A stretch of DNA of 64,000 bases from an uncultured Solirubrobacterales bacterium (GCA_963782025.1 CAWAIB010000005.1:483919-547918), one strand, 5' to 3'. Positions 16,141 through 62,615 are shown, counted from the stretch's first letter. Translations and numbers: made by a program. The notes: generated from the sequence alone by a model not told the origin.

Positions 16141-16272
16141 GCTCAACCAAGGCAAGCAATCCCGGGTCTTTCGTCTCCCGGCCAATAAGTCCGCGAAGCG
16201 GTATTGGCCGGGAGACGAAAGGCCCGGGATCTGCGTAGCCGGGGGACGAAAGACCCGGGATCTGCGACGGGC
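16141..16272. repeat. type-1 hairpin element (27-bp stem, GCGAAGC apex) plus one extra R-arm copy
   Basis: L-arm CCCGGGTCTTTCGTCTCCCGGCCAATA 16161-16187, R-arm 16202-16228 (one T:G position), second R-arm end GACGAAAGACCCGGGATCTGCG 16245-16266. Preceded by GCTCAACCAAGGCAAGCAAT. Confidence 0.9.
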
Positions 16273-16343
16273 TACTTGTTAGGACAGCGAAGCGACGATG
16301 TCCGAGAGTGGCTAGGGGTGCCGGGCCATCTTTGTGAATGGAG

Positions 16344-16769
16344 TTAGCCGGGGGTGCGCTCGAAGCGAACGGCGTTCTCGAAGTGCGGTGCCCACGGTGG
16401 CGCGGAGCGTGTCCAGATCTCGACCGTTGGGTTTATCCAAGAGGTATCGTCGATCGTTCCCGCCTTCAGGAAGGCCACTCCCGGCATCGACTCGATCGTG
16501 CTGAAGATCGGCGACCCGCAGGCCGAGCAGAACCGCCGCTCGGTGGTGCTCTGATAGTCCTCGCTGACGGTCTCGAACGAGGCGAGCGTGTCACCCTCGA
16601 CGGTAAGCGTCTTGCTCGGTACGCCCACGATCACCGAGAACGCCGTAGCGGTCTGGCGCCGGCAGTTCGTGCAGTAGCAAGCGCCCTGCCAGACCGGCTC
16701 GGCGTCGACGCTATAAGTCACGCCACCGCACAAACAGCGGCCCGTAATCGGTCTCGGTGCATCGGCCAC
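16344..16769 (-). CDS. GFA (glutathione-dependent formaldehyde-activating / CENP-V-like) family protein
   Basis: 141-aa ORF with Cys motifs GRCLCGGV, CYCTNCRRQT, FCSACGSPIF. Confidence 0.85.
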   Translation of the reverse strand: MADAPRPITGRCLCGGVTYSVDAEPVWQGACYCTNCRRQTATAFSVIVGVPSKTLTVEGDTLASFETVSEDYQSTTERRFCSACGSPIFSTIESMPGVAFLKAGTIDDTSWINPTVEIWTRSAPPWAPHFENAVRFERTPG

Positions 16770-16849
16770 GCACCCGAAACCCTACAGGAGCTGCGAGGAT
16801 TGGCGTCCAGACACGCAAACCGAAGGAGGCTCCGGATGGCCGTGCTCAC

Positions 16850-17764
16850 GTGAAGGCGACCCGAACACCCGACTCCTGTTTCGTTGGCCTCGAGGACTAT
16901 CCATATGAGGCGCGCTACGTAGACGTCGACGGGATCCGCATGCACTACGTCGACGAGGGCGACGCATCGGCGGCGCCGGTCCTGATGCTCCACGGCGAGC
17001 CGACCTGGTCGTATCTGTATCGCCACATGATTCCCGTCTGTGTCGCGGGTGGCAGTCGCGTGATCGCGCCGGATTTGATCGGCTTCGGGAAGTCTGACAA
17101 GCCGACCGAGAGAGGCGACTACTCCTACCAGCGACATGTCGACTGGATGACCGGCTTCATCCAAGCGCTCGACCTCCGCGAGATCACGCTGTTCTGCCAG
17201 GACTGGGGCTCGCTGATCGGGCTTCGCGTAGCGGCCGAGAACGACGATCGCTTCGAGCGGATCGTCGTCGGCAACGGTGCTCTGCCGATCGCCGACGATC
17301 AAGCACGCCCCGGTCTCCCAAACATGCTCGCGTTCCTCGCCTGGCGAACGTTTGCGACCTACAGCCCGATCCTTCCGGTGAGTCGCATAGTGAGCTTCGG
17401 CTGCCTGAAGACACTCTCCAAGGAGGAGCGCCGTGCCTACGACGCGCCCTTCGCGGCCCCCGATACCAAGGCCGGCGCACGCGCGTTTCCGAAGCTCGTC
17501 CCAATATCGGCGGGAGATCCCGCGATCCCGTCCAATCGCGCGGCATGGAGCGCGCTCGGCAACTGGAACAAGCCGTTGCTGACCGTGTTCAGCGATCGAG
17601 ACCCGATCATGCGCGGGGGAGAGCGAGCCTTCCAAAAGCATGTGCCGGGAGCGGCCGGACAGCCCCACGGCACGCCCCACGCCGGTCACTTCCTGCAGGA
17701 GGACGCGGGCCCCGATCTGGCACGACAGGTCAACGAGCTGATCGCCGCCACCCCGACACGGTGA
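16850..17764 (+). CDS. haloalkane dehalogenase (DhlA-like, alpha/beta hydrolase)
   Basis: RTPDSCFVGLEDYPY, LMLHGEPTWSYLYRHMIP, APDLIGFGKSDKP, TLFCQDWGSLIGL (Asp nucleophile). These closely resemble DhlA-type enzymes. The track ORF starts at 16757, overlapping the divergent GFA gene. GTG 16850 sits just before the conserved N-terminus. Start uncertain. Confidence 0.85.
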   Translation: MKATRTPDSCFVGLEDYPYEARYVDVDGIRMHYVDEGDASAAPVLMLHGEPTWSYLYRHMIPVCVAGGSRVIAPDLIGFGKSDKPTERGDYSYQRHVDWMTGFIQALDLREITLFCQDWGSLIGLRVAAENDDRFERIVVGNGALPIADDQARPGLPNMLAFLAWRTFATYSPILPVSRIVSFGCLKTLSKEERRAYDAPFAAPDTKAGARAFPKLVPISAGDPAIPSNRAAWSALGNWNKPLLTVFSDRDPIMRGGERAFQKHVPGAAGQPHGTPHAGHFLQEDAGPDLARQVNELIAATPTR

Positions 17765-17779
17765 TTCGGGGCGTGACGC

Positions 17780-18721
17780 TCACGCGGGGGCGAGGCCTGC
17801 AGCGTCCAGGAACTCGCGGATGTGGCGATTGACGAGCTCGGGGTGTTGCTCGGCGATCCAATGTGTCCCGTCCGCCACCGGGTGGAACGTCAGGTTGCGG
17901 GCGAAGTGCTCGAGGCCGGCATGAGAGGCGGGCCTGACGTATGGGTCTGCCTCCGGGTAGATCACCATCGTCGGGACATCGACGTACAGGGGCGCCACGT
18001 CTGGGCAGTAGTTGCCGCGGCCGGGGGTGCCGTCCCGATCCGGCGGCGCGATTCCCTCGACCTCATACCAGTGAAGCGCCGACTCGATCGTCCGCGGAAC
18101 ACGCCATGAGCGCCGGTAGGACTCGCGATCCTCCTCAGAGAAGAACGGGTGATCGAGCGCCTGCTCGAGCGCGGCGAAGTCGTTGGCGGCGATCGCCTCG
18201 ATTGCATCCGGGCGTCGAAGTCCGAGGAGATACTGGCTGGCTTTGATCTGCTCGTCGTCCTCCCGTTGCGCACGATCGAGGACACCGGGATGGGCACCGC
18301 CGAGGCTGATCAGCGCCCGCAGCATCTCCGGATAGTGGAGCGCGAACGACCATGCCACCAGGCTGCCCCAGTCGTGGCCGACGAGCACGAAGCGGTCGTA
18401 GCCAAGGTGCTCGACGAGGCAGCGCAGATCCTCTACCGCTGGCCAGATCCCGTAGCTGTGGACGCCCTCGGGCTTGGAGGAGAGGTTGTAGCCGCGCTGG
18501 TCGGGAGCAACGGCGAGGTGGTCGGCGCCGAACTCACGCAGCTGCGCGCGGAAGGCATAGTGGTACTGGGGGAAGCCATGCAGGAAGACGATCAGTGGCC
18601 CTGTGCCCGCGTGGGCGTAGTGCAGCTCGATCCCGTTCACGGCCGCGGTCTCGTACTGAACCATCCCGTCGCGGATAGCCAGGCGCCGCTGAAGGCCGGT
18701 TTGCTCATCTGTGTTGGTCAT
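17780..18721 (-). CDS. alpha/beta hydrolase (epoxide hydrolase-like)
   Basis: 313-aa ORF. IVFLHGFPQYHY (HGxP), APDQRGYNLSSKP, LVGHDWGSLVAW (Asp nucleophile). Confidence 0.85.
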   Translation of the reverse strand: MTNTDEQTGLQRRLAIRDGMVQYETAAVNGIELHYAHAGTGPLIVFLHGFPQYHYAFRAQLREFGADHLAVAPDQRGYNLSSKPEGVHSYGIWPAVEDLRCLVEHLGYDRFVLVGHDWGSLVAWSFALHYPEMLRALISLGGAHPGVLDRAQREDDEQIKASQYLLGLRRPDAIEAIAANDFAALEQALDHPFFSEEDRESYRRSWRVPRTIESALHWYEVEGIAPPDRDGTPGRGNYCPDVAPLYVDVPTMVIYPEADPYVRPASHAGLEHFARNLTFHPVADGTHWIAEQHPELVNRHIREFLDAAGLAPA

Positions 18722-18766
18722 GGGCGGATCATCCCGCTTGACCGTTGGCGCGCCGTTGGCGTCTGC

Positions 18767-19513
18767 TCAGCGCATGACGAGCTCGGAGTGCAACGCCAGC
18801 AGCTGCGGTCCCGGTGCGACTCCTAGGGCCTCGCGTAGCCGCAAGCGAAGCTCGTCGTACACGAGGAGCGCGGCCGGCCGCTCACCACGCGTGTCAAGCG
18901 CTCGCATCAGCAGCGCGGTCGCGCTCTCGCTCAGCGGCTCGGCGGCAACGAGCTCGCGCGCCGCCCTCTCGGCAGTCAGCAGCTCGGTTTCGCCGAGCTC
19001 GAGCGCGGCCGCGGCGAGCGTCGCCAGCGCGCGTGTGTATAAGGCGCCGAGCTCCCTGCGGCGGTCATCGACCCATGCGCCGTCGTGCCCGGTTAGGAAG
19101 CCACGGCGCGTGACATTCATCGTAATGTGGGAGGCGATCCAGGCACGCTCCCACTCCTGCCGAACAACCCCCGACTCAGCGTCGTGGATCGCCCGTGCGG
19201 CTACCTCCACGTCAACGCTCGCGCCGTCATCGAGCGTGAGACGCAGCGGCCCAACTGCCGGGAGCGAGTCGCGTCCGATCACCGAGCGGAGCTTGGAGAG
19301 CAGAGCACGCATTGCCTGAGCGGACGCCGGCGGACGCTGTTCTCCCCAGATCGCCGTCGCGAGCTCCTCCCGCAGCGCGGCGCGATCACGGTTACAGACG
19401 AGCCACGCGAAAGCGATCCGGCCCTGCGCTCCAGGTAGCTGACCCGCCAGCTCAGCTCCTGCGGATCTCACGAGAAGGCGTCCACACAGCTGCACGACCA
19501 CATCAGCGAACAT
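18767..19513 (-). CDS. SARP-family transcriptional regulator (OmpR-type wHTH + BTAD)
   Basis: VVVQLCGRLLVRSAG, RIAFAWLVCNRDRAALREELATAIWG, and BTAD string EPLSESATALLMRALDTRGERPAALLVYDELRLRLREALGVAPGPQL. The track start 19618 overlaps a convincing opposite-strand DUF1059 ORF. I used Met at 19513, which is uncertain. Confidence 0.75.
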   Translation of the reverse strand: MFADVVVQLCGRLLVRSAGAELAGQLPGAQGRIAFAWLVCNRDRAALREELATAIWGEQRPPASAQAMRALLSKLRSVIGRDSLPAVGPLRLTLDDGASVDVEVAARAIHDAESGVVRQEWERAWIASHITMNVTRRGFLTGHDGAWVDDRRRELGALYTRALATLAAAALELGETELLTAERAARELVAAEPLSESATALLMRALDTRGERPAALLVYDELRLRLREALGVAPGPQLLALHSELVMR

Positions 19514-19519
19514 ACCGAC

Positions 19520-19678
19520 ATGGCAAAGCGAATCGTTTGTGAGTGCGGCTACATCATTCGGGGTGAGGACGACGAGCAGGTCGTGGAGCTCGGACGCGAG
19601 CACATGCAGGCCAACCATCCCACGATCGCGGCGGTGATCACCGCCGCGGAGTTGCTGGAGATGGCCGAGGAGGAATGA
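19520..19678 (+). CDS. DUF1059-family small protein
   Basis: 52-aa ORF below the track cutoff: MAKRIVCECGYIIRGEDDEQVVELGREHMQANHPTIAAVITAAELLEMAEEE*. The CxCG start and the helical tail are typical of DUF1059. Confidence 0.7.
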   Translation: MAKRIVCECGYIIRGEDDEQVVELGREHMQANHPTIAAVITAAELLEMAEEE

Positions 19679-19767
19679 GACCTGCGGGCGCAGGTTCTCC
19701 GTCCAAGTTTCACAGCGGGGCCGCCGGCCCGGTGGGTCCTGCCCGGGCCGGCGGCGATCCGCGATCG

Positions 19768-24403: not shown

Positions 24404-24689
24404 CGAAGGAAACCTACTACATGAGGATTGCGCTACAGGGGCCACATCGTCGAACCACGCGGCAGGCGGTGCAGGAGTCGAGATCGCCCTCGAACTGTAC
24501 TTCTCGATGTGTGGTGCTGGATATAGGCCCACTTGCGCTCGGTGAGCTCGACCTTGCGCCCTTGCGGTGAGAGAGTGTTCGAGTGTTCGCGATGACATGG
24601 GTGTCGTCAGTCCGACGTGCGGGTGGAGGACCAGGCATCGAACATATGGCCCATAGTCCCCGGACGGAATTCGGAACGATTCGTGTGGC

Positions 24690-25030
24690 TCAACCAAGGC
24701 AAGCAATCCCGGGTCTTTCGTCTCCCGGCCAATAGGTCCGCGAAGCGGTATTGGCCGGGAGACGAAAGACCCGGGATCTGCGACGGGGACAAGACCCGGG
24801 ATCTGCGACGGGGACAAGACCCGGGATCTGCGACGGGGACAAGACCCGGGATCTGCGACGGGGACAAGACCCGGGATCTGCGACGGGGACAAGACCCGGG
24901 ATCTGCGACGGGGACAAGACCCGGGATCTGCGACGGGGAGGAAGGTCCGGGATCTGCGACGGCAGCGAAGCCGGTATTGGACGGGGACGAAAGACCCGGG
25001 ATCTGCGAAGGGGACGAAGCCGGTATTTTG
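24690..25030. repeat. type-1 hairpin element with the largest arm-reiteration array (six perfect 25-bp units plus variants)
   Basis: L-arm 24708-24734, apex GGTCCGCGAAGCGG, R-arm 24749-24775 (perfect 27-bp stem). Units CGACGGGGACAAGACCCGGGATCTG start at 24781, 24806, 24831, 24856, 24881 and 24906. Degenerate units run to 25030. Confidence 0.95.
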
Positions 25031-28394: not shown

Positions 28395-28511
28395 CCCAAC
28401 TTAGAGCGGCCATAAGACATTGCAAAGTCGTCGTTAAGAGGTGGACCGTAGCCTCGCTGAGTGTCGTTGAGGCGCGATGTCAGACAACCAAACTGAGGAG
28501 GAGGCCGGCGC

Positions 28512-29482
28512 ATGGCTACGCAAGGGGTGCTTGGGGCGGCGACGTTGAAGGAGTTCGAGGACGGGTTGCACGGAGAGCTGATCCGGCCCGGCGATGGCGT
28601 TTATGACGAGGCTCGTGCGATCTGGAACGGCGCCCATGACGCTCGCCCGGCGGTGATCGCCCGCTGCGCTGATTCCTCCGACGTGCGCCACGCGATCGGT
28701 TTCGCGCGCAGCGAGGGACTTGACGTCGCGGTGCGTGGCGGCAGCCACAGCATCCGGGCGACCGCGCCGAGGAGATCATGCGCTTCTACCGGGAGTTCAC
28801 GCGTGAGGTGCCGGATGAGCTGAGCACCCTGGTCAACCTGATCACCGGGCCACCCGCTCCGTTCATTCCTGAGGACTGGCACGGCAAGAAGCTGATCGCC
28901 CTCGTCGGCTGCTACTCCGGTGACCCCGAGGAGGGGATGAAGGTGATGCAGCCGCTCCGCGACCTGGGCGACGCGGTCGCGGACCTTGTCAGCCCGATGC
29001 CCTACGTGCAGATGGAGAGCCTGCTCGATGCGCTCTGGCCGAAGGGCACCCAGGCCTACATGAAGGCGGGCTACTTCCGCGAGCTCGACGATCACGCGAT
29101 CGAGACGATGGCCCGCTTCCATCAGAACGCGACCTCCCCGGCCTCGGAGATCCACATCCAGCAGTTCGGCGGCGCGATCGCCCGTGTCGGTGAGGAGGAG
29201 ACCGCCTGCGGGGAACGCCAGGCGCCGTTCGTGCTCAACGCGATCGCCGCCACCCATGAGCCGACCGGCCTGGAGACCCATATGGATTGGGCGCAGCGGC
29301 TCTATGCCGAGATCGAGCCGTCGCTGACCGGTGGCGCCTACATCAACTTCCTCTCCTCCGAGGGCGAGGATCGGGTCAAGGCGGCCTACGGGACCGAGAA
29401 GTTCGCCCGGTTGCGGGCGCTCAAGGACCGCTACGACCCCACCAACCTGTTCCACCTGAACCAGAACATCCCACCATCATGA
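28512..29482 (+). pseudogene. BBE-type FAD-binding oxidase with 427-nt internal deletion (copy of 51088..52485)
   Basis: Nearly identical to 51088..52485 at both ends. The junction near 28751-28757 (CACAGCAT/CCGGGCGACC) removes the equivalent of about 51330-51756 and shifts the frame. The track shows two ORFs, 28512..28823 and 28778..29482. Confidence 0.9.
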
Positions 29483-29547
29483 TCATGGCGGTGAGGGTCC
29501 GCACCAAGCCACGTCTGGTGCGTCTACTGCTCGGAGTGCCCATTCCG

Positions 29548-29937
29548 TCACCGTTTTGCCGCGAGGTCGGCATAATGGCCCCACGGCAATGTTGCAGCAG
29601 GCTGCTGCAACATTGCCTCAGATGTCTCGCACATGCTCCATGCGCGCGCGAACTCGCGCATGTATCGAAGGTTACGTAGCGAGAAGCCGGTGATATCGGG
29701 CAGCTCGCGCCGAAGATCAACCGCCAGCCTGTCTACAATCTTGGCGCCCCATCCCTCACGCCGCTCGCGTTCGAGGATCTCGTGCCCGATTTCCCAGTAG
29801 AGCTGGATCAGCTCGCTGTTGACCGCGAGCACGGCACGAGTCCGGGCAGCCCCGATCCGGGCCTTGATCTCGGCCAGGAACTGCGGGTAGGCGGCCGGCA
29901 GCTCGTCGGCGCGACTTGTGGGTGGCACACTGGGCAT
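29548..29937 (-). pseudogene. truncated yhcG/DUF1016-family gene (N-terminal domain only)
   Basis: MPSVPPTSRADELPAAYPQFLAEIKARIGAARTRAVLAVNSELIQLYWEIGHEILERE...GFSLRNLRYMREFARAW...LQQPAATLPWGH, then unrelated sequence and a stop. The PD-(D/E)XK C-domain is absent. The ATG abuts the SOS box. Confidence 0.75.
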
Positions 29938-29951
29938 CGAACATATGTTCC
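29938..29951. promoter_or_regulatory. LexA/SOS-box-like operator (CGAACATATGTTCC)
   Basis: 13/14 match to the palindrome CGAACATATGTTCG. Lies directly 5' of the yhcG-like ATG on the minus strand. Confidence 0.6.
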
Positions 29952-29984
29952 CATCGTCTGCGGACGGCATCCGGAGCTACTCGT

Positions 29985-30133
29985 CTGAGCTCAACCCAGG
30001 CAAGCAGTCCCGGGTCTTTCGTCTCCCGGCCAATAGGTCCGCGAAGCGGTATTGGCCAGGAGACGAAAGGCCCGGGATCTGCGATCGCGGCGAGCCCGGT
30101 ATTGGACGGGGGACGAAGGCCCGGGATCTGCGC
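29985..30133. repeat. type-1 hairpin element plus one partial apex+R-arm copy
   Basis: L-arm 30009-30035, R-arm 30050-30076 (two imperfect positions), second copy GCGAGCCCGGTATTGGACGGGGGACGAAGGCCCGGGATCTGCG 30089-30133. Confidence 0.9.
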
Positions 30134-31300: not shown

Positions 31301-31454
31301 CGCGCCCAGAACGGTACGCGCGAGTTGTGACGGCAGAGTGGATTAGGTGCCCGCCCACCCCGCGAGACTGTCGCGAGAAGTCCAGCTTGCGGATCTAATT
31401 ACCAGTAACGACTCGTGTGTCCGTGTCTGCCAACACGCCTTGGGACTTCTTTCG

Positions 31455-31625
31455 AGCTCAACCCAGGCAAGCAATCCCGGGTCTTTCGTCTCTCGGCCAA
31501 TAAGGCCGCGAAGCGGTATTGGCCGAGAGACGAAAGACCCGGGATTGCGTAGCCGGGGAGGGAAGACCCGGGATTGCGTAGCCGGGGAGGGAAGACCCGG
31601 GATTGCGTAGCCGGGGGACGAAGAG
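31455..31625. repeat. type-1 hairpin element with 29-bp-period arm reiteration
   Basis: L-arm 31476-31502, R-arm 31517-31543 (perfect, T:A variant). Units ATTGCGTAGCCGGGGAGGGAAGACCCGGG at 31544 and 31573, partial unit from 31602. Abuts the stop codon (31630) of the surface-protein gene. Confidence 0.92.
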
Positions 31626-31629
31626 CGTC

Positions 31630-34112
31630 TCAGTACTTCACGTGCGCTTCGGCTTCGGTGTAGGAGGTGCCTTCTTCGACCTTGAGCTTCAGGATGGCTT
31701 CGCTCGTGCCGGACGCGGGGCTCGTGTATTCGAAGACGCCTGAGGATTCGGCGAGGCCGGAGGCGGGGATCGCGAGGCCGGTAGCGTTCGTGAGCGTGCC
31801 TTCGCCGCTCGTCTTTTCGACCTTCGCCTTGTGGGCGCCGCCGAGGTTGGAGACGATGTTGCCGTATGCGTCGGTGACGCTGGCGTGGGCTTTGAATTTC
31901 TTGCTGGCGCCGATGCTGGTCGTGATGCAGGCAAAGGGGCAGGTGCCTGCTTCGAGTTTGCCGGCGCTCACCGTGGCGCCTGACCAGGCAAAGCGTTCCG
32001 GCGCGCCAGCCCTGATCGTGAACGAGCCCGACGTGCCTGTCACGGTGGCTGCCTTCTTTGACTTTGAGGGTCGTGTTCTGGGCGTCAAAGAGCTTGATCA
32101 GAGAGGCTGTGCCCACGCCTTCGGTGAAGGTGACCGTCGTGGCCGTGGTCGGGTATTCGGGCGCGAGGCCGCCGGGCGAGCTGGCGGGTTCGCTGAAGGC
32201 GAGTGTCCTTGAGCCCGCATAGCCGGCCGTGATGTTGCCCCATTCGTCGGTGGCGGTGAGCGTGATGTTGAAGGGGGCGCCCGCTTCCTGTTCTGAGGGT
32301 GTTGGCACGGTGAGCTTTTTGGTCGCGGCTGCTTTGACCGTGAAGGAGCCCGTGACGCCTTCGATCGTCCCTTCCGTCGCCTTCAGTGTCGTGTTTTGGG
32401 CGTCGTAGAGTTTGATCGTCGAGGCCGTGCCCACGCCGGAGGCGAAGGTGACGGTCGCCGGGTAGCTGGGCGGTTGTCCGCTGGGCGAGTTTGAGGGTCC
32501 GCTCCAGGTGAGCGTCTTTGCGCCCGTGTAGCTCTTGGCGGTGTTGCCCCATTCGTCGATCGCGGTGGCTTTCACGCTGACGGCGGTGGTGCCCGCTGTC
32601 GCTTCGGCCGGCGTCGTCATGCTGAAGCTGTTGGCGGCGGCCGCCTTGACGGTGAACGAGCCCGAGGCGCCTTCGATGCTGCCTTCTTTCGCTTTGAGCG
32701 TGGTGCTCGCGGCGTCGTAGAGCTTGAGCGAGGAGGCCGTGCCCACGCCCGCGGTGAAGGTGACCGTCGTCGCCGAGGCAGGGTATTCGGGCGCTGTGCT
32801 GATGGGCGAGGGCGAGCTCGCCGGCCCGCTCCAGGCGAGCGTCTTTGCGCCGGCGTAGCTGGTCGCGGTGTTGGAGTATTCGTCGAGGGCGGTGAGCGTC
32901 ACGTTGAAGGGGGCGCCCGCTTCCTGTTCGGACGGCGTTGGCACAGTGAATTTCTTGGCGACGGCCGGTTTGACGGTGAAGCTGCCCGACGTTCCTTCAA
33001 TTGCTGTCGTGCTTTCCTTTGCTTTCAGCGTCGTGGTCTGGGCGTCGTACAGCTTGGTCGAGGCAGCCGCGCCGGCGCCGGCGGTGAAGGTGACCGATGC
33101 CGTGTAGCTGGGCGCTTTTCCACTGGGCGAGTTGGCGGGTTCGCTCCAGGTGATCGTCTTTTTGCCCGCATAGCTCGTGGCGGTGTTGCCGTATTCGTCG
33201 GTGGCGGTGAGCGTCACGTTGAAGGGGGCGCCCGCTTCCTGTTCTGAGGGTGTCGGCACGCTGAGCTTCTTCGCCGCGGCCGCTTTGACCGTCACCGCCA
33301 GTCCGGTGGAGTTGTTGAGCGAGCCTTCCTTGACCTTGATGTGCGCGGCTTCGGCCTTGTACAGGGTCATCACGCCGTTGATCGCGCTCGACACCGTGGA
33401 TTTGCCTTCGCTGAACGTGATTTCGGTTGCTTCGCCAAAGCTCCTTTCGACGCCTGAATTGTCAACCACAAGCGGTTCTTCGCCGGCCGCTTCGTTGGCG
33501 CCTTCAAAGATCAGGGAATGCGAACCCGAGTAGGTCCCGACCGTGTCGCCCGACGCGTCCTTGGCGGTGATTGTGAGGTTGTCGGTCGCGCCGGCGGTGG
33601 GCGTGGTGTTTGCGGCTTCGAGCACGAGGTGGGTCGCCGGGCCATAGGCAACCGTCACCGATTTGGCTGTGCTTGTCGCCGTCCAAGTGCGCCAGACCGC
33701 GGTGACCGTGTATTCGTGGGCGCCGATCGACAAGCCCGTGTCGGTGCAGCTCGTGGCGGTCGAGGGAGAGCCCGAGCTCGGGCAGCCGCCGCCGGGGGAG
33801 CCGGCGTCGCGAGTCAGCGAAGTATTCGACCGTGCCGCCGCCGGGTGGCGTGACGGCCGACCAGGTGAGTTCGACCGTTTGGGCGCCCGGCGTGGCACTC
33901 GAGATCGCGGGCGAGGAGAGCGTCGCCAGGCTCGCCGACGCGTTTATTGTGCCGGCGCCCGACCAGTAACCAAAGACGCCCGCGACCAGCAGGCTCAGCG
34001 TCATCACGGTAGTGACCGCGATCCGCCGGGGCCTGCTGTGGCGGTTCGATCGCCTGGGCCTGCTGCGACGATTCGGTCTTCTCATGAGTGCGCGCTTGGT
34101 ATCGCGGGCCAC
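31630..34112 (-). pseudogene. large cell-surface protein with about six tandem Ig-like (Big_1-type) repeats, interrupted by two +1 frame disruptions
   Basis: Three track ORFs join into one protein: 33504..34112 (signal anchor IAVTTVMTLSLLVAGVFGYWSGAG, TVEYF), 31343..33898 (LTRDAGSPGGGCPSS..., then ~100-aa repeats VPTPSEQEAGAPFNVTLTATDEYGNTATSYAG...KLYDAQTTTLKAKE) and 31630..32088 (ATVTGTSGSFTIRAG...EAEAHVKY*). Frame breaks near 33815-33825 and 32047-32056. Confidence 0.75.
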
Positions 34113-34730: not shown

Positions 34731-34774
34731 GGGAGACGAAAGACCCGGGATCTGCGCCGGGGACGAAAGACCCG
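34731..34774. repeat. partial type-1 element (two R-arm copies, no L-arm)
   Basis: GGGAGACGAAAGACCCGGGATCTGCGCCGGGGACGAAAGACCCG. Lies between the 34135..34650 start and the 34777 stop. Confidence 0.8.
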
Positions 34775-35668: not shown

Positions 35669-36095
35669 CCGGGCCTTGATCTCGGCCAGGAACTGCGGGT
35701 AGTCGGCGGACAGCGCGTCGCTCCGGCGTAAGGGTGCAGAACAAGTAATCGAACATATGTTTGTATATGGCCAGGACGGAACGAGGCTACTCCAGGCGTC
35801 TGGCCCGTCTTCACGGCCGCTGATCCGGGCCCAACCAAGGCAAGCAGAGTCCGGGTCTTTCGTCTCCCGGCCAATAAGTCCGCGAAGCGGTATTGGCCGG
35901 GAGACGAAAGACCCGGATCTGCGCCGGGGGGAGCTGTGAAAATCTCTTTGTGAATTTAAGGATGTGTTTTTGGGCCAGCATTCGCGCAGGAAGGTGAAAC
36001 CTCCAATGGAAGTGGGCGCGGAGCGTCCTGCTCCGCGTACAGGGGTTGCTTAGCCACGGTAGATGTGTGGCTTTAGCCCTGGCTGGCTTGTACAA
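35669..36095. repeat. composite module L1: yhcG 5' fragment, SOS-like box, conserved 85-nt spacer, type-1 hairpin, D module
   Basis: 35669-35748 encodes (minus strand) ...SDALSADYPQFLAEIKAR with ATT in place of ATG. Hairpin arms 35850-35876 and 35891-35917. D module 35931-36095 with hairpin CGCGGAGC-GTCCT-GCTCCGCG at 36017-36037. Confidence 0.85.
35750..35763. promoter_or_regulatory. SOS-box-like site with one mismatch (CGAACATATGTTTG)
   Basis: 13/14 match to CGAACATATGTTCG, in the same module position as the perfect copies. Confidence 0.45.
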
Positions 36096-38165: not shown

Positions 38166-38198
38166 GCGCATTACGCTCGCCGGTCTATGAGGCTGGCC

Positions 38199-40589: not shown

Positions 40590-41025
40590 CACGAGAGTCA
40601 TCGAACATATGTTCGCATATGGCCAGGACGGAACGAGGCTAGTCCAGGCGTCTGGCCCGTCTTCACGGCCCGCTGATCCGAGCTCAACCAAGGCAAGCAG
40701 AGTCCGGGCCTTTCGTCTCTCGGCCAATAAGTCCGCGAAGCGGTATTGGCCGAGAGACGAAAGACCCGGGATCTGCGACGGGAGGAAGCCCCGGGATCTG
40801 CGCCGAGGCGGCGCTCGCCTATGGCGTGCGAGTGGTGTGTCTGTGTGCCGGAAGAGCCTGTGCAGGAAATCGGCTACGGGGGGTGTGTTTTGGCAGTTAT
40901 GAAGGCCGTCTTGATGAGCGTCAAAACCATGCCGACCCCACGCCTGAGGGCGCGCGGGAGGTGTGTCTCCAAGACCAGGTGGTCGTGGTGATGGCCTGTG
41001 CCGGTACGCAAGGCGGACAACGCGA
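40590..41025. repeat. composite module L3: SOS box, spacer, type-1 hairpin, E module, partial F module, type-2 spacer remnant
   Basis: Hairpin arms 40703-40729 and 40744-40770, extra R-arm end to 40802. E module 40803-40866, F module 40867-40950. GTGGTGATGGCCTGTGCCGGTACGCAAGGCGG at 40985-41016 matches the 64-bp type-2 spacer. Confidence 0.85.
40602..40615. promoter_or_regulatory. perfect LexA/SOS-box palindrome CGAACATATGTTCG
   Basis: Exact copy of the 37792-37805 site. On the minus strand it is followed by ATG (40601..40599), then unrelated sequence and the AbiEi gene. Confidence 0.65.
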
Positions 41026-50695: not shown

Positions 50696-50985
50696 GTAGT
50701 TTTCCTGATCAAGCTGCTCGCTCTGGAGTCCGAGCGCCGCCTCCACGTCGAGCAGGCGGCCGAGCTGCTGTGGGCGGGGCGGGACCCGGACTCCGCCCGC
50801 AACAACCTGCATCAGGCGATCTTCGCGGCCCGGCGCGCGCTCGACTCGATCGGGCTGGACGGCAGCCGCTACCTGGAGCTGCGCGAAGAACTGATCCTGC
50901 TCAGCCCCGAGGACCCGGTCCGGATCGACGCCGTCGCCTTCGAACAGCTCGCCGCCGCGGCGCGCAAGCAGGGCGAGCCCGGCGG
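50696..50985 (+). pseudogene. N-terminal fragment of a SARP/BTAD regulator (diverged paralog of 25065..28394)
   Basis: LIKLLALESERRLHVEQAAELLWAGRDPDSARNNLHQAIFAARRALDSIGLDG...PEDPVRIDAVAFEQ aligns with residues ~40-130 of the 25065 protein. It then joins directly to the sequence found downstream of that gene (GCGGCCATAAGACATTGC). Confidence 0.75.
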
Positions 50986-51087
50986 CCATAAGACATTGCA
51001 AAGTCGTCGTTAAGAGGTGGACCGTAGCCTCGCTGAGTGTCGTTGAGGCGCGATGTCAGACAACCAAACTGAGGAGGAGGCCGGCGC

Positions 51088-52485
51088 ATGGCTACGCAAG
51101 GGGTGCTTGGGGCGGCGACGTTGAAGGAGTTCGAGGACGGGTTGCACGGAGAGCTGATCCGGCCCGGCGATGGCGTTTATGACGAGGCTCGTGCGATCTG
51201 GAACGGCGCCCATGACGCTCGCCCGGCGGTGATCGCCCGCTGCGCCGATTCCTCCGACGTGCGCCACGCGATCGGTTTCGCGCGCAGCGAGGGACTTGAC
51301 GTCGCGGTGCGTGGCGGCAGTCACAGCATTCCCGGCTTCTCGACGGTCGATGACGGCATCGTTATCGACCTCTCGCCGATGAAGGGCGTCACGGTGGATG
51401 TGGCCGCTCGCACCGCCAGGGCCGAGGGTGGCGTCACCTGGGGGGAGTTCGACGCCGTCACCCAGGAGCACGGCCTTGCCACCACCGGGGGCCTGGTCTC
51501 GACCACCGGCGTCGCCGGCTTCACGTTGGGCGGCGGGATCGGCTGGCTGATGCGCAAGCATGGTCTGGCCTGCGACAACCTGCGCTCGGCCGAGGTCATC
51601 ACCGCCGACGGGCAGATCCTGACCGCGAGCGCGACGGAGAACCCCGATCTCTTCTGGGGCCTGCGCGGCGGCGGAGGTAATTTCGGCGTCGTCACCTCCT
51701 TCGAGTTCGACCTGCACCCGGTTGGCCCGACCGTGGCCGCCGGCCCGGTCTGGTATCCGGGCGACCGCGCCGTGGAGATCATGCGTTTCTACCGGGAGTT
51801 CACGCGTGAGGTGCCGGATGAGCTGAGCACCCTGGTCAACCTGATCACCGGGCCACCCGCTCCGTTCATTCCTGAGGACTGGCACGGCAAGAAGCTGATC
51901 GCCCTCGTCGGCTGCTACTCCGGTGACCCCGAGGAGGGGATGAAGGTGCTGCAGCCGCTCCGCGACCTGGGTGACGCGGTCGCGGACCTGGTCAGCCCGA
52001 TGCCCTACGTGCAGATGGAGAGCCTGCTCGATGCGCTCTGGCCGAAGGGCACCCAGGCCTACATGAAGGCGGGCTACTTCCGCGAGCTCGACGATCACGC
52101 GATCGAGACGATGGCCCGCTTCCATCAGAACGCGACGTCCCCGGCCTCGGAGATCCACATCCAGCAGTTCGGTGGCGCGATCGCCCGTGTCGGCGAGGAG
52201 GAGACTGCCCAGGGCGAGCGCCAGGCGCCGTTCGTGCTCAACGCGATCGCCGCCACCCATGAGCCGACCGGCCTGGAGACCCACATCGATTGGGCGCAGC
52301 GGCTCTATGCCGAGATCGAGCCGTCGCTGACCGGTGGCGCCTACATCAACTTCCTCTCCTCCGAGGGCGAGGATCGGGTCAAGGCGGCCTACGGGACCGA
52401 GAAGTTCGCCCGCCTCCGAGCGCTCAAGGACCGCTACGACCCCACCAACCTGTTCCACCTGAACCAGAACATCCCACCATCATGA
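51088..52485 (+). CDS. FAD-binding oxidoreductase (BBE-type), intact copy
   Basis: 465-aa ORF. DVAVRGGSHSIPG, LRGGGGNFGVVTSF, YDPTNLFHLNQNI. GAGGAGGAGG upstream of the start. Confidence 0.9.
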   Translation: MATQGVLGAATLKEFEDGLHGELIRPGDGVYDEARAIWNGAHDARPAVIARCADSSDVRHAIGFARSEGLDVAVRGGSHSIPGFSTVDDGIVIDLSPMKGVTVDVAARTARAEGGVTWGEFDAVTQEHGLATTGGLVSTTGVAGFTLGGGIGWLMRKHGLACDNLRSAEVITADGQILTASATENPDLFWGLRGGGGNFGVVTSFEFDLHPVGPTVAAGPVWYPGDRAVEIMRFYREFTREVPDELSTLVNLITGPPAPFIPEDWHGKKLIALVGCYSGDPEEGMKVLQPLRDLGDAVADLVSPMPYVQMESLLDALWPKGTQAYMKAGYFRELDDHAIETMARFHQNATSPASEIHIQQFGGAIARVGEEETAQGERQAPFVLNAIAATHEPTGLETHIDWAQRLYAEIEPSLTGGAYINFLSSEGEDRVKAAYGTEKFARLRALKDRYDPTNLFHLNQNIPPS

Positions 52486-53402
52486 TCGCGGCGGTGAGGG
52501 TCGAGGAGATGACGTTCCGCTCTGAGGGCGTGGACTGTGCGGCCCGGGTCTACCGGCCGGACGTTGCGCCTGGGGAGGCCACACCGTGCGTCGTGATGGC
52601 TAATGGTTTCAGCCTCACACAAGACGACGGTCTGCCGGCGTTTGCGGAGCGGTTCGCGGGCGAGGGGATCACCGCACTCACCTTCGACTTCCGCCACCTC
52701 GGCAGGAGCGATGGCGAGCCGAGGCAGGTCATGGACCCAAACCGCCAGCAAGCCGACTTCGTAGCAGCCGTGTCGTTCGCTCGACAGCTCGAAGGTATCG
52801 ACGCTGATGCCATGGCTGTGTGGGGCTTCTCAGGCGGCGGCGGTCTCGCGATTAACGTTGCGGCTCATGACCATAGGATCGCCGCTGCTATTGCCATGAA
52901 TCCGGCGACGGACACGATCGCGCTCTTCCGGACAATGCCGATCCGCACTTTGCACGCGGTGAACGTTGCTATTTTGCGCAACATGTTTGGCAGAGCGCGG
53001 GTTCACATTCCGGTTGCGGCGCCTCCAGGCTCCATAGCCTGGTTCACGCAGCCCGAGGCGCTCCCCGGTTTCGAGGCCATCCGTGGCGATCGCTCCCTCT
53101 GGCGCAACGAGTACTTGCCACTTTCGTTTGCGGGGGCCACCAGCTTCCGACCGGTCCGGGTGGCCCACCGTGTGCAATGCCCGCTGTTCGTCGGTATTGG
53201 TGAACAGGATCACGTGATTCCGCGTAAGGCGGCTGAACGGACCGCCGAACGTGCCCCGCGCGGTGAGCGGCGCGACTACCCGATCGATCATTTCGGCGCT
53301 TTCCTGGGTGAGGGTTTCGAGCGTGTGGTGGCAGACCAGATCGAGTTTCTCTCACGTCACCTGCTCGCTGCGCAAACACCCAGCCCGCGCGCGATCAGCT
53401 AA
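52482..53402 (+). CDS. alpha/beta hydrolase
   Basis: Start MIAAVRVEEMTFRSEG at an ATGA overlap with the oxidase stop. VVMANGFSLTQDD, VWGFSGGGG (GxSxG). The track start 52290 is an in-frame over-extension inside the oxidase gene. Confidence 0.8.
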   Translation: MIAAVRVEEMTFRSEGVDCAARVYRPDVAPGEATPCVVMANGFSLTQDDGLPAFAERFAGEGITALTFDFRHLGRSDGEPRQVMDPNRQQADFVAAVSFARQLEGIDADAMAVWGFSGGGGLAINVAAHDHRIAAAIAMNPATDTIALFRTMPIRTLHAVNVAILRNMFGRARVHIPVAAPPGSIAWFTQPEALPGFEAIRGDRSLWRNEYLPLSFAGATSFRPVRVAHRVQCPLFVGIGEQDHVIPRKAAERTAERAPRGERRDYPIDHFGAFLGEGFERVVADQIEFLSRHLLAAQTPSPRAIS

Positions 53403-58208: not shown

Positions 58209-58490
58209 AGGCTAGTCCAGGCGTCTGGCCCGTCTTCACGGCCGCTGATCCGGGCTCAACCAACGCAAGCAATCCCGGGCCTTTCGTCTCTCGGCCAATA
58301 AGTCCGCGAAGCGGTATTGGCCGAGAGACGAAAGACCCGGGATCTGCGACAGGGAGGGAAGACCCGGGATCTGCGCCGGCGGAAGCAGTGAAATCTCTTT
58401 GTGAATTGAGGATGTGTTTTGGGTCGCATCCGCGCAGGTAACCGAGACCTCCAGAGGGAGTGGGCGCGGGGCCTCCATGCCCCGCGTCGG
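58209..58490. repeat. composite module L4: partial spacer, type-1 hairpin plus one R-arm end, D module (no SOS box)
   Basis: Hairpin arms 58274-58300 and 58315-58341, extra R-arm end to 58375. D module 58381-58490 with the compensated hairpin variant CGCGGGGC-CTCCAT-GCCCCGCG at 58465-58486. Confidence 0.85.
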
Positions 58491-58580
58491 ATGCGATGGC
58501 AGTACGCCGGCTATCCACGCGCTCGCAACCTCGCAGAGAACAGTCGCCTGTTGGCGAAATTGTCAACCTGAGTTGGCATA

Positions 58581-59768: not shown

Positions 59769-59928
59769 CGCCGCTAGAAACGACACGCCGGCCGGCTCCT
59801 TCCGCAGTCGCTGAGCGGGGTTTTTTGACCGATCAAAGATCGGCTCGCATCCGCGCATGTGCCTGGTGTTCCCGTTGTGGATGGGTGCAGGCTCTCCATG
59901 CCCCGGTACCAGGGCTTGCTTAGCCACG

Positions 59929-60130
59929 GCGGATCTCGGACATTCGTTTCGACCGAGAGGACCCGCCTCAGTGGGGCCGGTCGAAACGAATGTCCGAGAT
60001 CCGCTGTGGTGATGGCCTGCGCCTGGACGGCAAAGCGGGGCCGGTCGAAACGAATGTCCGAGATCCGCCGTGGTGATGGCCTGCGCCTGGACGGCAAAGC
60101 GGGGCCGGTCGAAACGAATGTCCGAGATCT
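59929..60130. repeat. type-2 hairpin element: perfect 27-bp stem followed by two more R-arm copies at 64-bp period
   Basis: L-arm GCGGATCTCGGACATTCGTTTCGACCG 59929-59955, 22-nt loop, R-arm 59978-60004. Further R-arm copies at 60042-60068 and 60106-60129. Confidence 0.92.
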
Positions 60131-60430
60131 TGCCCGGGCCCCCCACCCTGTGACCAACAAGTAACCATCTGTGAAGCCGGGCCTGAGATCGGCTACGGGG
60201 GGTGTGTTTTGGCAGTTATGAAGGCCGTCTTGATCAGCGTCAAAATCATGCCGACCCCACGCCAAGGGCGCGCCGGTGGCGCATGGTTCTGCCCATGCTC
60301 GCCTTCGCGACCGTCTTTGTGAATTGAGGATGTTGTGAATGGAGGATGTGTTTTTGGGCCAGCATCCGCGCAGGAAGGTGAAACCTCCAATGGAAGTGGG
60401 CGCGGAGCGTCCTGCTCCGCGTCATGGCGC
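60131..60430. repeat. F module followed by D module (shared with other loci)
   Basis: 60145-60310 is almost identical to 62445-62610 and partly to 40867-40950. 60311-60430 matches the D modules at 35931, 38037 and 58381. Confidence 0.85.
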
Positions 60431-60505
60431 GTTACGTAAACCGGGTCGGCCACCCATGCATGGCCGCGATCATCAAACCGCCTCCAAGATCCCTCGTCGG
60501 AAGAG

Positions 60506-61033
60506 CTATCGGGCGAGGGTGTCGAGGAACTCGTTGATTGCTGCGGCGGCGTCGGCGGCGAGGAGTTGCGCGTCGTCCTCGGGGGTGACCTTTCGTGCTT
60601 CGCGGGCGTAGGCTCGCGCGCCATGTGCGCGGTCGTTGCGAAATCGTTCGCGTATCTCCAGGAAGGTGGAGCTCATGCCCGGGAGTGCATCCGCGAGTGG
60701 GCTGGCCTTGACGATGTTGGCGGCTTCGGTTGGGCCACCGGCATCGTTGTGAAGTAAGACGTATGCGAGGTCGTAGTAATCCTTGTCGGCGCCGCGTGTG
60801 CGCACGGCCACGGACTTCGAGAGCAGGTAGCCGGCGAGTCCGGCGATCTGAACACGCAGATTGCCCTCGGGAACGTGAAGGATGTACTCGTGGTGGTCAC
60901 GCTCGACGTAGCCGGTGCCCCGGAGATTGACCGCTCGCAGCCTCGAGCACCCAACCGGTGAAACGATCGCCTCGGCCGGCTGGTTGTCGAGATCGCAGAG
61001 GAACTCGATCTTGACGATGCGATCGTTAGCCAC
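60506..61033 (-). CDS. N-terminally truncated nucleotidyltransferase toxin paralog (catalytic GG...DxD region absent)
   Basis: 175 aa aligning with the C-terminal ~170 aa of 57274..58089. Keeps the same 8-nt coupled start (GTGGCTAA vs GTGGCTGA), but roughly 95 N-terminal residues including the NTase motif are missing. Confidence 0.65.
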   Translation of the reverse strand: MANDRIVKIEFLCDLDNQPAEAIVSPVGCSRLRAVNLRGTGYVERDHHEYILHVPEGNLRVQIAGLAGYLLSKSVAVRTRGADKDYYDLAYVLLHNDAGGPTEAANIVKASPLADALPGMSSTFLEIRERFRNDRAHGARAYAREARKVTPEDDAQLLAADAAAAINEFLDTLAR

Positions 61034-62039
61034 GCTCTGATCCCATCACGTCGCGGAGATGTTGGGCGGCATCCTCTCCCCGGCCGCCAAGGCGTTTGAG
61101 GTCGGCGTAGACCCGTGGCCAGGAGACGAGGGGGCCAGACGGAGAAGGAGTCGTGAGGCTGAATGCGTTGCTTGGAGTGCGCCACAGCTCGATCCGGCCG
61201 GCGTCATCTGTGACGGTGAGGCCGGCGTCCCGTAGCCGCGGTGCGAGGTCGCGGTGCGCGTAGCGCTCATCGACCCGCAGGTGCAGGATCGGGAGCTGCG
61301 TGACGAATGGCGCGAGCTGCTGCGCGGCGGCCCACCCCGTCCAGCCGAACGCGACATCGCCGAGGACGTGCGTGAGGCGGGCCTGCAGGTCGTCGAGGTC
61401 GCGGCTGGTGGTGTGGGCAAACCACTTCTCTATGGGGCTGGTGTTGAGGTGCGCTGTCCAGGATGCGAGCATCGCCTCCGGGTGTTCCAGGACACGGTGC
61501 GCTCCGCGTCCTCGGGCAGGTCCCTGCTTCGCGGTCCAGCCTTCCTGGTCCCAGCCGGTGAGGATCCGGCTGGCTCGCGCGATCGAGCAGCCGGCGTGTT
61601 CAGCGATCCAGGCCGTCGTGATCTGTTCGGGGCGAGCGGCGAGGGTCGCCTCGGCGGCAAGGATCGCGATCTCACTCCAGGAGGCCCCACGCGGATTTGG
61701 ATCCTTTGGCGCGGGCGCGCGGTCGACGTGGACGAGCAGGCCGTCGCCCCGCAGATTCGCCGCGCCTGTCTCATCGACCCAGTTGATCGCCCGCTCGTCG
61801 AGCAGCCGCCGAGCGCCGGATGAGAGCTCAGGCGCGACTACGAGCGTCACAGCTGGGGAGCGCTCCAGCCGTGCACGGACCTCGGCCGGGGAGCCACGGC
61901 GAACCCACGCGGCGCTGAAGCGTGGCTGGCGAGGCAGCCCCACGACGCGCAGGGCATGCGCGCCGGCCGCGGACTGGACGAGAACGTCAGCATCGAGCAC
62001 GGTGCTGACGGCACGCGTCAACCGATCTTTCTCGTTCAT
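61026..62039 (-). CDS. AbiEi-like antitoxin-family protein (paralog of 56253..57281)
   Basis: 337-aa ORF with the shared C-terminal motif. TAGAAT (62051..62046, minus strand) lies 6 nt upstream of the ATG in an AT-rich 60-nt stretch. Confidence 0.65.
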   Translation of the reverse strand: MNEKDRLTRAVSTVLDADVLVQSAAGAHALRVVGLPRQPRFSAAWVRRGSPAEVRARLERSPAVTLVVAPELSSGARRLLDERAINWVDETGAANLRGDGLLVHVDRAPAPKDPNPRGASWSEIAILAAEATLAARPEQITTAWIAEHAGCSIARASRILTGWDQEGWTAKQGPARGRGAHRVLEHPEAMLASWTAHLNTSPIEKWFAHTTSRDLDDLQARLTHVLGDVAFGWTGWAAAQQLAPFVTQLPILHLRVDERYAHRDLAPRLRDAGLTVTDDAGRIELWRTPSNAFSLTTPSPSGPLVSWPRVYADLKRLGGRGEDAAQHLRDVMGSERG

Positions 62040-62097
62040 GCCTATATTCTACTACCACAAGCAAGAATACGATAGGAAGCAAAAAAAGGTGTGCCCA

Positions 62098-62615
62098 GGT
62101 CCGTGCAGCCCCGATCCGGGCCTTGATCTCGGCCAGGAACTGCGGGTAGTCGGCGGACAGCGCGTCGCTCCGGCGTAAGGGTGCAGAACAAGTCATCGAA
62201 CACATGTTTGTATGTGGCCAGGACGGAACGAGGCTACTCCAGGCGTCTGGCCCGCCTTCACGGCCGCTGATCAGGGCCCAACCAAGGCAAGCAGAGTCCG
62301 GGTCTTTCGTCTCTCGGCCAATAAGTCCGCGAAGCGGTATTGGCCGAGAGACGAAAGACCCGGGATCTGCGCCGAGGCGGCGCTCGCCTATGGCGTGCGA
62401 GTGGTGTGTCTGTGTGCCGGAAGAGCCTGTGCGGGAGACGCCCGCCTGTGACCAACAAGTAACCATCTGTGAAGCCGGGCCTGAGATCGGCTACGGGGTG
62501 TGTTTTGGCAGTTATGAAGGCCGTCTTGATGAGCGTCAAAATCATGCCGACCCCACGCCAAGGGCGCGCCGGTGGCGCATGGTTCTGCCCATGCTCGCCT
62601 TCGCGATCGTCCTCG
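62098..62615. repeat. composite module L6: yhcG 5' fragment (about 33 codons), SOS-like box, spacer, type-1 hairpin, E module, F module
   Basis: Minus strand 62196..62098 reads MTCSAPLRRSDALSADYPQFLAEIKARIGAAR... Hairpin arms 62297-62323 and 62338-62364. E module 62372-62440, F module 62441-62615. Confidence 0.85.
62197..62210. promoter_or_regulatory. SOS-box-like site (CGAACACATGTTTG)
   Basis: GAAC-N4-GTTT in the module position of the perfect boxes. One half-site mismatch. Confidence 0.4.

Follow-up and report, generated by a model that had tools for sequence, protein, structure and literature searches.

How does a long, nearly perfect hairpin come to stand at ten places within 46 kb of a bacterial genome, always facing the same way, and what might it do there? 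The question is raised by a 64-kb stretch of DNA from an uncultured Solirubrobacterales bacterium (GCA_963782025.1, CAWAIB010000005.1:483919-547918; hereafter the window), in which an initial annotation, made from the sequence alone, had recognized a family of hairpins with a GCGAAGC apex and had likened them to REPINs. Here we find that this is a structured repeat family in which pairing is preserved, and we tentatively favor a reading in which it is a lineage-specific mosaic palindromic repeat, composed of a hairpin and a minisatellite, that was spread by duplication of junctions and is likely to serve as a transcript barrier or processing site.

Copies, orientation, and pairing of the hairpin

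The survey took in the 64-kb window and the syntenic regions of sister strains. A pattern scan for the left arm, allowing up to 3 mismatches, gave 17 matches in the window (left arms plus reverse-complemented right arms), all confined to nine loci, compared with 0 in dinucleotide-preserving shuffles, and the + strand carries all nine full copies, against a chance expectation of 0. A covariance model trained on 16 distinct copies likewise returned exactly nine full matches, each scoring about 30 bits better on the + than on the - strand. Both approaches agree with the left-arm starts first listed (16161, 24708, 30009, 31476, 35850, 37892, 40703, 58274, and 62297) and with the single orientation claimed over 46 kb, and our reading of the tenth locus, 34731-34774, as holding right-arm copies only agrees as well. 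The ten loci fall within 46 kb, with none at 1-16 kb or 41-58 kb of the window, and the copies are co-oriented irrespective of the strand of the neighboring genes. All ten loci are intergenic, six lying between - strand genes, three between + strand genes (16161, 24708, and 58274), and one between divergent genes (62297); nine of the ten copies lie 0-290 nt downstream of a stop codon.

The building unit is a sequence of about 33 nt, TATTGGCCGRGAGACGAAAGACCCGGGATCTGC. One inverted pair of units makes a hairpin of 31-37 bp, which is followed by truncated direct copies in the form of a minisatellite. The 27-nt arms described at the outset are confirmed, but the stem does not end with them: exact-stem searches and DNA folding show that it usually runs on through the ATCTGC linker (GCA(G)AT.../...ATCTGC) to 29-33 bp, in some copies with a one-base bulge. 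The 14-nt "apex" does contain GCGAAGC at its tip, though it resolves into a 3-nt bulge and a 4-bp stem closed by a GAA triloop (CCGC-GAA-GCGG), and the strand asymmetry of the hairpin arises solely from the bulges and the tip. Folding energy is about -45 kcal/mol as DNA, with a z of about -12, and the fold is very stable whichever strand forms it.

Conservation of the stem itself, as opposed to its sequence, had been proposed on the strength of a few paired changes, and the larger set of copies bears this out. Across the 31 pairs assessed in 16 distinct copies, 99% of cells are standard pairs; changes on both sides that preserve the pair occur at five of the 27 arm pairs (arm positions 1, 3, 7, 18, and 19); the covariation score was reached by 0 of 500 shuffles; and sliding the partner by 1-3 columns reduces pairing to only 32-50%. 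At arm position 18, C:G is found in the three copies originally named (16161, 24708, and 35850) and also in 30009, while T:A holds for four of the five named (31476, 40703, 58274, and 62297); the fifth, 37892, has T in its left arm, but deletions in the right arm have damaged the stem. The terminal T:A pair reported for 35850 is seen in the copy alignment. Uncompensated arm changes, which the initial annotation had said would speak against a maintained stem, are present as single changes in several copies; pairing stands at 99% overall, and the one-sided changes are all transitions that give T:G or C:A. A T:G mismatch would be a wobble pair in RNA of the + strand and C:A in RNA of the - strand, and because both occur (at 4 and 2 positions, respectively), mismatch type is uninformative as to strand.

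Variation between sister strains

We compared the window with four syntenic long contigs from ENA (L001, L058, L059, and L060) and with a short NCBI contig of 1.4 kb (L057). The syntenic regions, retrieved by exact-protein look-up, are 97-99% identical to the window, and the sister strains have the same hairpin loci in the same orientation; as the hairpin is present in five other independent assemblies, it is not an assembly artifact. In this comparison of strains we saw no insertion polymorphism; all that differs between them is decay and the number of units.

The tandem tail is hypervariable. Behind the ATCTGCG linker, the number of extra right-arm units per copy ranges from 0 (at 35850 and 62297) to 8, so that the linker and direct copies described initially stand while the range of 1-8 does not; the units have periods of 25, 27, 29, and 31 nt, and two of the tails abut a stop codon. 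Counting the right arm itself, the units at 24708, 30009, 31476, 34731, 35850, 37892, and 40703 number, in that order, 9, 2, 3, no hairpin, 1, 3, and 2 in the window and 9, 2, 6, 2, 4, 4, and 2 in L001; for the three strains in which 40703 is not covered, the first six loci have 5, 2, 4, 3, 1, and 4 (L058), 9, 2, 3, 2, 3, and 4 (L059), and 6, 2, 4, none, 5, and 3 (L060). Tandem-unit number thus differs at most shared loci among the window and its four sister strains.

The hairpins themselves also change. At the 34731 locus, a full hairpin that includes a compensated CCTGGG/CCCAGG pair is present in L001, L058, and L059; where this hairpin would stand, the window has about 30 nt of unrelated sequence, and the covariance model finds no match at this locus in L060. 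Arm position 18 of the 35850 locus is occupied by C:G in L058 as in the window, by T:A in L001, and by T:G in L060, and at 30009 the right arm is constant across strains and the left arm occurs in three forms, one of them perfectly complementary. By hand count, the hairpins of the window and L001 disagree at about 12 of 408 positions, in surroundings that are 98.4-99.4% identical. The hairpin, then, is no slowly evolving sequence but one that changes fast with its pairing kept, although some of the single-base differences between strains may be long-read homopolymer errors. Such a pattern fits selection for the fold or templated correction of one arm by the other, plus some conversion between copies.

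A second long hairpin, unrelated in sequence, lies at 59929-60129 (exact stem 27 bp, folded stem 33 bp, 22-nt center) and is followed by 2.5 tandem copies, with a 64-nt period, that repeat its right arm. The same layout of hairpin and direct right-arm copies in an unrelated sequence suggests that slippage at long palindromes is general in this genome.

Shared flanks of the copies

Most copies share far more than the hairpin. To the left of every copy stands a GCTCAACCAAGGCAAGCA-like sequence; the motif CTCAACC(A/C), once said to precede all copies, is not uniform, with CCCAACC in three and ...AACGCAAGCA in one. Six copies extend further left into one of two versions of a leader, and a seventh (58274) has part of it. 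A CGAACATATGTTCG-type palindrome closes the leader, and immediately after it a DUF1016_N gene or the remnant of one begins. In its type II version the leader (37786-37891 on the - strand, with further sites at 35744-35849, 40596-40702, and 62191-62296) reads TGCTTGCCTTGGTTGRG ... CGAACATATGTTCG, the latter a LexA/Cheo-type box; the type I version is shorter (24604-24688 and 29903-29989).

To the right, beyond the tail, one of two further conserved blocks follows. The type A block consists of a GCGGGGC-N5-GCCCCGC hairpin, about 30 nt of spacer, CTGCGCGGATGCGACCC, and an A-rich tail containing ACATCCTCC, and at 38053-38175 on the - strand it can be followed from the GC hairpin over about 30 nt to a CTGCGCGRATGC..CCCAAAA core. 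Additional - strand copies lie at 35932-36045, 58384-58491, and 60333-60436 and partial cores at 37765 and 59842, and it is the blocks at 35932, 38053, and 58384 that stand to the right of hairpin copies. The type B block, an alternative right flank, is found on the + strand at 40786-40996, with another at 62355-62611 and part of one at 60147-60315.

Taken together, copy pairs have 150-270 nt in common at 86-96% identity, and we saw no target-site duplications at the homology boundaries and found no empty sites. Such extended shared flanks suggest that junction segments were duplicated and not that the hairpin transposed. The initial annotation had held that copies confined to one region with identical extended flanks would mean plain segmental duplication, and this is in part what we find, with ten loci in 46 kb of accessory DNA and most flanks shared. 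The mosaic character of the junctions is evident at copy 37892, where the DUF1016 leader is joined to the upstream region of an AAA_14 gene at a CTGCAC/CTGCGC microhomology. In the window, the hairpin and DUF1016 leader have a full type A block on one side and a further, partial type A core on the other, and at the DUF1016 locus of another species (L065) the same box precedes the gene, with type A about 200 nt upstream and no hairpin between them. Type A is found co-oriented in other species, with seven copies in L065 (2030, 2962, 7040, 9760, 11150, 12560, and 12744) and one in L062 (9655-9725), the latter contiguous with an AAA_14 upstream region; it has no match in Rfam. Type A is common to different species at cassette boundaries and may be more important than the hairpin for the building of these islands.

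The CGAACATATGTTCG box is perfect at 37792-37805 and 40602-40615, has 1 mismatch at 29938, 35750, and 62197, and recurs in the other species at L065 10017-10030, next to the ATG of a DUF1016_N gene; matches with at most 1 mismatch number 11 in the window, against 4.1 expected. The palindrome matches the consensus of the Gram-positive and actinobacterial LexA (Cheo) box, CGAACRNRYGTTYC (PMC2248561), and its retention before DUF1016_N in another species suggests that these nuclease-family genes may be under SOS control. The DUF1016_N homologs in this clade are mostly short, N-terminal-only open reading frames of 80-240 aa rather than full-length YhcG-type nucleases, and the 5' part of the gene may be either a recurrent breakpoint or a stand-alone gene.

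Followed from left to right, the individual copies, all on the + strand, illustrate how these blocks are combined. Copy 16161-16228 (27-nt arms, 14-nt tip, one T:G mismatch, 107.8 bits) is flanked by two + strand genes with Pfam matches to alpha/beta-hydrolase. Copy 24708-24775, with perfect 29-bp arms and a + strand gene on either side, has a DUF1016-type leader remnant on its left (24604-24688) and the longest tail, in which 8 extra copies of the distal right arm and linker, in 25-nt units, occupy 24776-25015 on the + strand and vary in number in the sister strains. Copy 30009-30076, between a DUF1016_N gene and a DprA-like gene (both - strand), has two mismatches in the window, and its L001 ortholog is perfectly paired through changes in the left arm. 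Copy 31476-31543 has a perfect 32-bp stem (GCAAT.../...ATTGC) and a tail of 29-nt units (31544-31616) touching the stop codon of a - strand repeat-protein gene. The degraded locus at 34731-34774, also on the + strand, retains two right-arm units. Copy 35850-35917, with its terminal T:A pair and 0 extra units, lies between a type II DUF1016 leader on the left and a type A block on the right. Copy 37892-37960, whose right arm is damaged by deletions (69.5 bits), is followed by three tandem units (37960-38041); the arm is intact in L001 and L058. Copy 40703-40770 adjoins on its left a leader that contains a perfect CGAACATATGTTCG box and is fused to an AbiEi gene, and it has on its right one tandem unit and a type B block. 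Copy 58274-58341, between two + strand genes, has a partial leader from which the box is absent and, on the other side, one tandem unit and a type A block. Finally, copy 62297-62364, between divergent genes and with 0 extra units, has a DUF1016 leader and N-terminal gene fragment on its left and a type B block followed by an ATPase_2 gene on its right.

The accessory island and searches beyond the lineage

The surroundings are those of an accessory island. G+C content of the window is 61-73%, and the + strand is G-rich throughout (positive GC skew). Genes neighboring the hairpins include DUF1016_N fragments, a DprA-like gene, AAA_14 and AAA_14/DUF4143 ATPases, an AbiEi gene, a weak AbiEii match, and an ATPase_2 gene with a helix-turn-helix domain, and the source names of the DprA-like and DUF1016_N homologs are from the Solirubrobacteraceae (Actinomycetota). 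A scan of about 50 open reading frames in the window gave no transposase, integrase, HUH, or other recombinase, in agreement with the earlier statement that it has no RAYT gene; no tRNA was found in the window, and no integrase in it or in the 20-kb related loci, in sequence that stops short of the array ends.

Elsewhere in the window, 28406-29499 and 50982-52502 form a segmental duplication (97-99% identity) that carries a BBE/FAD-oxidase gene, the copy at 28.7 kb being short of about 420 bp (part of FAD_binding_4) relative to the copy at 51 kb, L001, and L058. A large open reading frame on the - strand (31343-33898) contains about four 315-nt tandem repeats at 72-80% identity; it has no confident Pfam domain, and its length among the strains is 788 aa (L001), 790 aa (L058), and 886 aa (L059).

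As far as can be seen among the sequences searched, the hairpin family is confined to one species-level lineage. Its exact core (30 nt, 27 specified) has no match in 185,579 species genomes, and a looser 19-mer has 22 matches in genomes and 29 in JGI metagenomes, all of them single and in unrelated contexts. There was no match in IMG/VR and none in plasmids and phages, and Rfam gave nothing at the gathering score, with only sub-threshold matches to microRNA-type hairpins in E-value mode. The covariance model found no hairpin at the DprA-like loci of other Solirubrobacterales (L002-L005), the AAA_14 loci (L061-L064), or the DUF1016 locus L065. A model scan of the genome and its relatives had been proposed with the first description; run here on the window, the sister strains, and the related loci, it places all copies in this lineage, so that the covariation described above is drawn from within it.

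The related loci have repeats of their own. At L002-L005 the DprA-like gene, which in most of these loci is paired with a DUF3987 gene, is followed by 3-4 iteron-like repeats, GGTTACCGCGTTTAGTTCTTAACCGCGTAG, at about 60-nt spacing (for example, L004 942-1163 and 12288-12484), and these modules, which recur every ~5-11 kb, look like replication modules of integrated elements. L065 contains a cassette-array-like island (592-19618) within a 2.7-Mb contig, with 11 co-oriented copies of an AT-rich motif, TATACCCAGTTTTNAAAACAATGTAT, that is promoter- or operator-like, an inverted-repeat family of its own with 37-nt arms (GGCAGTGTCTCAG...), and many small genes of toxin-antitoxin type (NTP_transf_2/HEPN, DUF4160/DUF2442, and DUF433).

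How the repeat may spread and act

The family has the features of a mosaic intergenic repeat, being intergenic and modular, with a variable number of modules, a stable fold, and no coding capacity, and under the reading we favor its history would run as follows. A junction composed of the hairpin and the DUF1016_N leader would have been duplicated several times within the island and then recombined with neighboring cassettes, and local duplication of the junction segment could by itself explain why the copies are co-oriented. The arms would be kept complementary by selection for the hairpin or, alternatively, by templated correction within the palindrome when it extrudes in single-stranded DNA, and the tail would grow and shrink by replication slippage at the strong hairpin, making the element a probable hotspot of slippage and recombination. 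A transcript crossing the element is predicted to fold into a long duplex, and RNA duplexes of 31-37 bp are the kind of substrate that RNase III cuts; the duplex might act between neighboring genes as a barrier, as a 3'-end site, or as a site of RNase III-type processing. Read on the - strand, the hairpin runs into TTGCTTGCCTTGGTTGAG, with a tail, UUGCUUGCCUUGGUUGAG, that is only U-rich, and each tail unit presents a small GC hairpin followed by TCTTTCGTCT / UCUUUCGUCU. Given this U-rich tail, a barrier effect would be expected especially for - strand transcripts, and we infer that the effect on the cell is most likely exerted at the transcript level.

Several observations weigh against this account. 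Copies 16161 and 31476 have only a core of about 130-150 nt in common with the others and lie in unrelated contexts, which implies that on at least a few occasions the core has moved without the DUF1016 leader. In length, the stem greatly exceeds those of ordinary terminators, the + strand has no U-tract, and three copies stand between + strand genes and one between divergent genes. Co-orientation together with positive GC skew would equally fit a single-stranded DNA mechanism tied to the direction of replication. Because the survey covered about 64 kb and the syntenic regions, additional copies or a RAYT-like gene may exist elsewhere in the genome, and the role in transcription is one predicted from sequence and fold.

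A simpler possibility, which we consider rather unlikely but the strongest of the alternatives, is that the hairpin is nothing other than a strong, possibly bidirectional, factor-independent terminator or insulator copied along with its junctions. Hairpin-only terminators are commonly proposed for Actinobacteria, the copies are always intergenic and nearly always close behind a stop codon, and the - strand offers a U-rich tail and, in each tandem unit, a small GC hairpin followed by TCTTTCGTCT; against this, the stem is three to five times the typical length, copy 62297 lies between divergent gene starts, orientation is constant even though three copies serve + strand and six - strand genes, the hypervariable tail goes unexplained, and several - strand genes already have a conventional GC hairpin behind them in the form of the type A block. 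A canonical intrinsic terminator (a 5-14 bp GC-rich stem and a U-tract) does not describe the element, given its 31-37 bp stem, its + strand tail of AUCUGCG, and its - strand tail of UUGCUUGCCUUGGUUGAG. Mobility of the kind originally suggested appears less probable still. On that account the hairpin would be a REPIN- or PATE-like non-autonomous element, cut and pasted on the lagging-strand template by a Y1 HUH enzyme (a RAYT or an IS200/IS605-type TnpA) encoded elsewhere, and the singlets would be decayed half-elements. The form does resemble a REPIN, with an inverted pair, direct singlets, and compensated arms; the asymmetry is confined to bulges and tip, as in HUH-recognized hairpins; the GCGAAGC version is always on the G-rich + strand; two or three copies lie in contexts unrelated to DUF1016; and mini-hairpins of the d(GCGAAGC) type are a typical feature of signals in single-stranded DNA (PMC13037366). 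RAYT-driven mobility, however, finds no support in the roughly 50 open reading frames of the window, which include no HUH or transposase gene, nor in the sister strains, which show no insertion polymorphism, and there is no target duplication or GTAG-type flanking tetranucleotide to be seen. Where tens to hundreds of copies with unrelated flanks, dispersed over the chromosome, would be expected of a REPIN, the visible 64 kb holds ten loci in 46 kb, most with shared flanks of 150-270 nt, and a full-text literature search returned no paper combining REPIN, RAYT, and Actinobacteria. Two related classes were also set aside: PATEs (IS200/IS605-derived), as there is a single hairpin, no conserved target, and no TnpA or TnpB in the window, and miniature inverted-repeat transposable elements, as there are no duplications or empty sites and all loci are common to the sister strains.

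The tip bears on a possible role of single-stranded DNA. GCGAAGC is exceptionally stable as DNA (PMC13037366), and, given a G-rich + strand, it falls on the strand that, as template for lagging-strand synthesis, would be expected to become single-stranded, a placement that makes a single-stranded DNA mechanism possible without demonstrating one. That the hairpin is a substrate of a single-stranded DNA recombination or mobility system undescribed in Actinobacteria, one that assembles and reshuffles the accessory-gene cassette arrays of this Solirubrobacterales clade together with the type A element, strikes us as doubtful; candidate enzymes would be a RAYT-like or other structure-specific enzyme encoded elsewhere or the PD-(D/E)XK nuclease family of DUF1016, the 5' ends of whose genes flank most copies. 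It is more doubtful that the repeat is a double-stranded binding-site array for a regulator or partition-like protein, with the tail as iterons and the hairpin as an inverted-repeat operator. Such arrangements typically combine direct with inverted copies of a single unit, and the related DprA-like/DUF3987 loci hold true iteron arrays, but periods of 25, 27, 29, and 31 nt do not keep helical phase, strains differ freely in the number of units, and pair-preserving double changes argue for folding rather than a fixed recognition sequence. Least probable of all, in our view, is a cassette recombination site similar to the attC of integrons, recognized on the folded strand by a site-specific recombinase that would shuffle the accessory genes. 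The element does lie at mosaic-block boundaries, among small accessory and toxin-antitoxin genes arrayed like cassettes, in co-oriented copies with bulged bases; the GCTCAAC / GTTGAGC beside the stem fits RYYYAAC / GTTRRRY; homology between some copies stops near this GCTCAAC; and related species have co-oriented conserved junction elements of their own (type A). Yet there is no second core site beyond the right arm or tail, the stem is near perfect and not the imperfect R''-L''/L'-R' fold, the window has no integrase, the related array L065 has junction elements and no hairpin, and GTTGAGC looks like part of the ancestral DUF1016 leader. With only one core-like motif (GCTCAAC), on one side, the repeat is not a member of the attC class.

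Relation to known repeats and implications

We take the family to be a new one in the general class of mosaic palindromic repeats that includes REP/BIME, BOX, and Correia elements, its function being an inferred one. REP, REPIN, and BIME sequences of Proteobacteria are mobilized by RAYT, and like them the present units are intergenic, occur as inverted pairs that form a long hairpin and as single or direct copies, have compensated arm changes, are lineage-specific, and stand in mosaic with other short motifs; unlike them, they have near-perfect arms of 27-33 nt without a GTAG-type head, no RAYT in the window, and some 10 copies with long shared flanks in one 46-kb island of an actinobacterial host. 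BOX elements of Streptococcus pneumoniae, built as boxA-boxB(n)-boxC, are similarly modular intergenic repeats with a variable tandem module, a stable fold, and no known transposase, though the two are unrelated in sequence and the module that varies here is one arm of the hairpin in truncated form. In Neisseria, the Correia (NEMIS) elements are also intergenic inverted repeats, transcribed into long hairpins that affect transcript ends and processing, but their size (100-155 bp), 26-bp terminal repeats, TA duplication, and dispersal in hundreds of copies have no counterpart here. The MIRU-VNTR loci of Mycobacterium offer an actinobacterial parallel in intergenic tandem units of tens of nt that vary between strains and in some cases touch stop codons, but MIRUs lack a long hairpin and are oriented with the operon. 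With integron attC sites, such as the VCRs (Vibrio cholerae repeats), the hairpins have in common that they are co-oriented folded sites between accessory cassettes, with a strand marked by bulges and a GTTRRRY-like motif, and they differ in that the core site lacks a partner, the stem is nearly perfect, the sequence on either side is conserved, and the window has no integrase. Mini-hairpins serve as single-stranded DNA signals in the phage G4 origin, RSF1010 ssiA, and the N4 hairpin promoters (PMC13037366), which likewise have a GNA triloop tip of the GCGAAGC/CCGAAGG type that is exceptionally stable as DNA; those, however, are single phage or plasmid sites with short stems, not repeated chromosomal stems of 30 bp.

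In conclusion, the family is a clear example of a hairpin that is very long and self-perfecting and that keeps its pairing as it evolves faster than the sequence around it, and its tail is a ready-made minisatellite for strain typing in a soil lineage. Work on interspersed palindromic repeats has concentrated on Proteobacteria and Firmicutes and has hardly touched deep-branching uncultured Actinobacteria, where the present element marks accessory islands of cassette-like build, with junction elements conserved from species to species. Discovery of a dedicated enzyme would carry REPIN-like or attC-like biology into a new phylum; were there none, the family would show how far plain duplication and the self-correction of palindromes can go in mimicking a mobile element.

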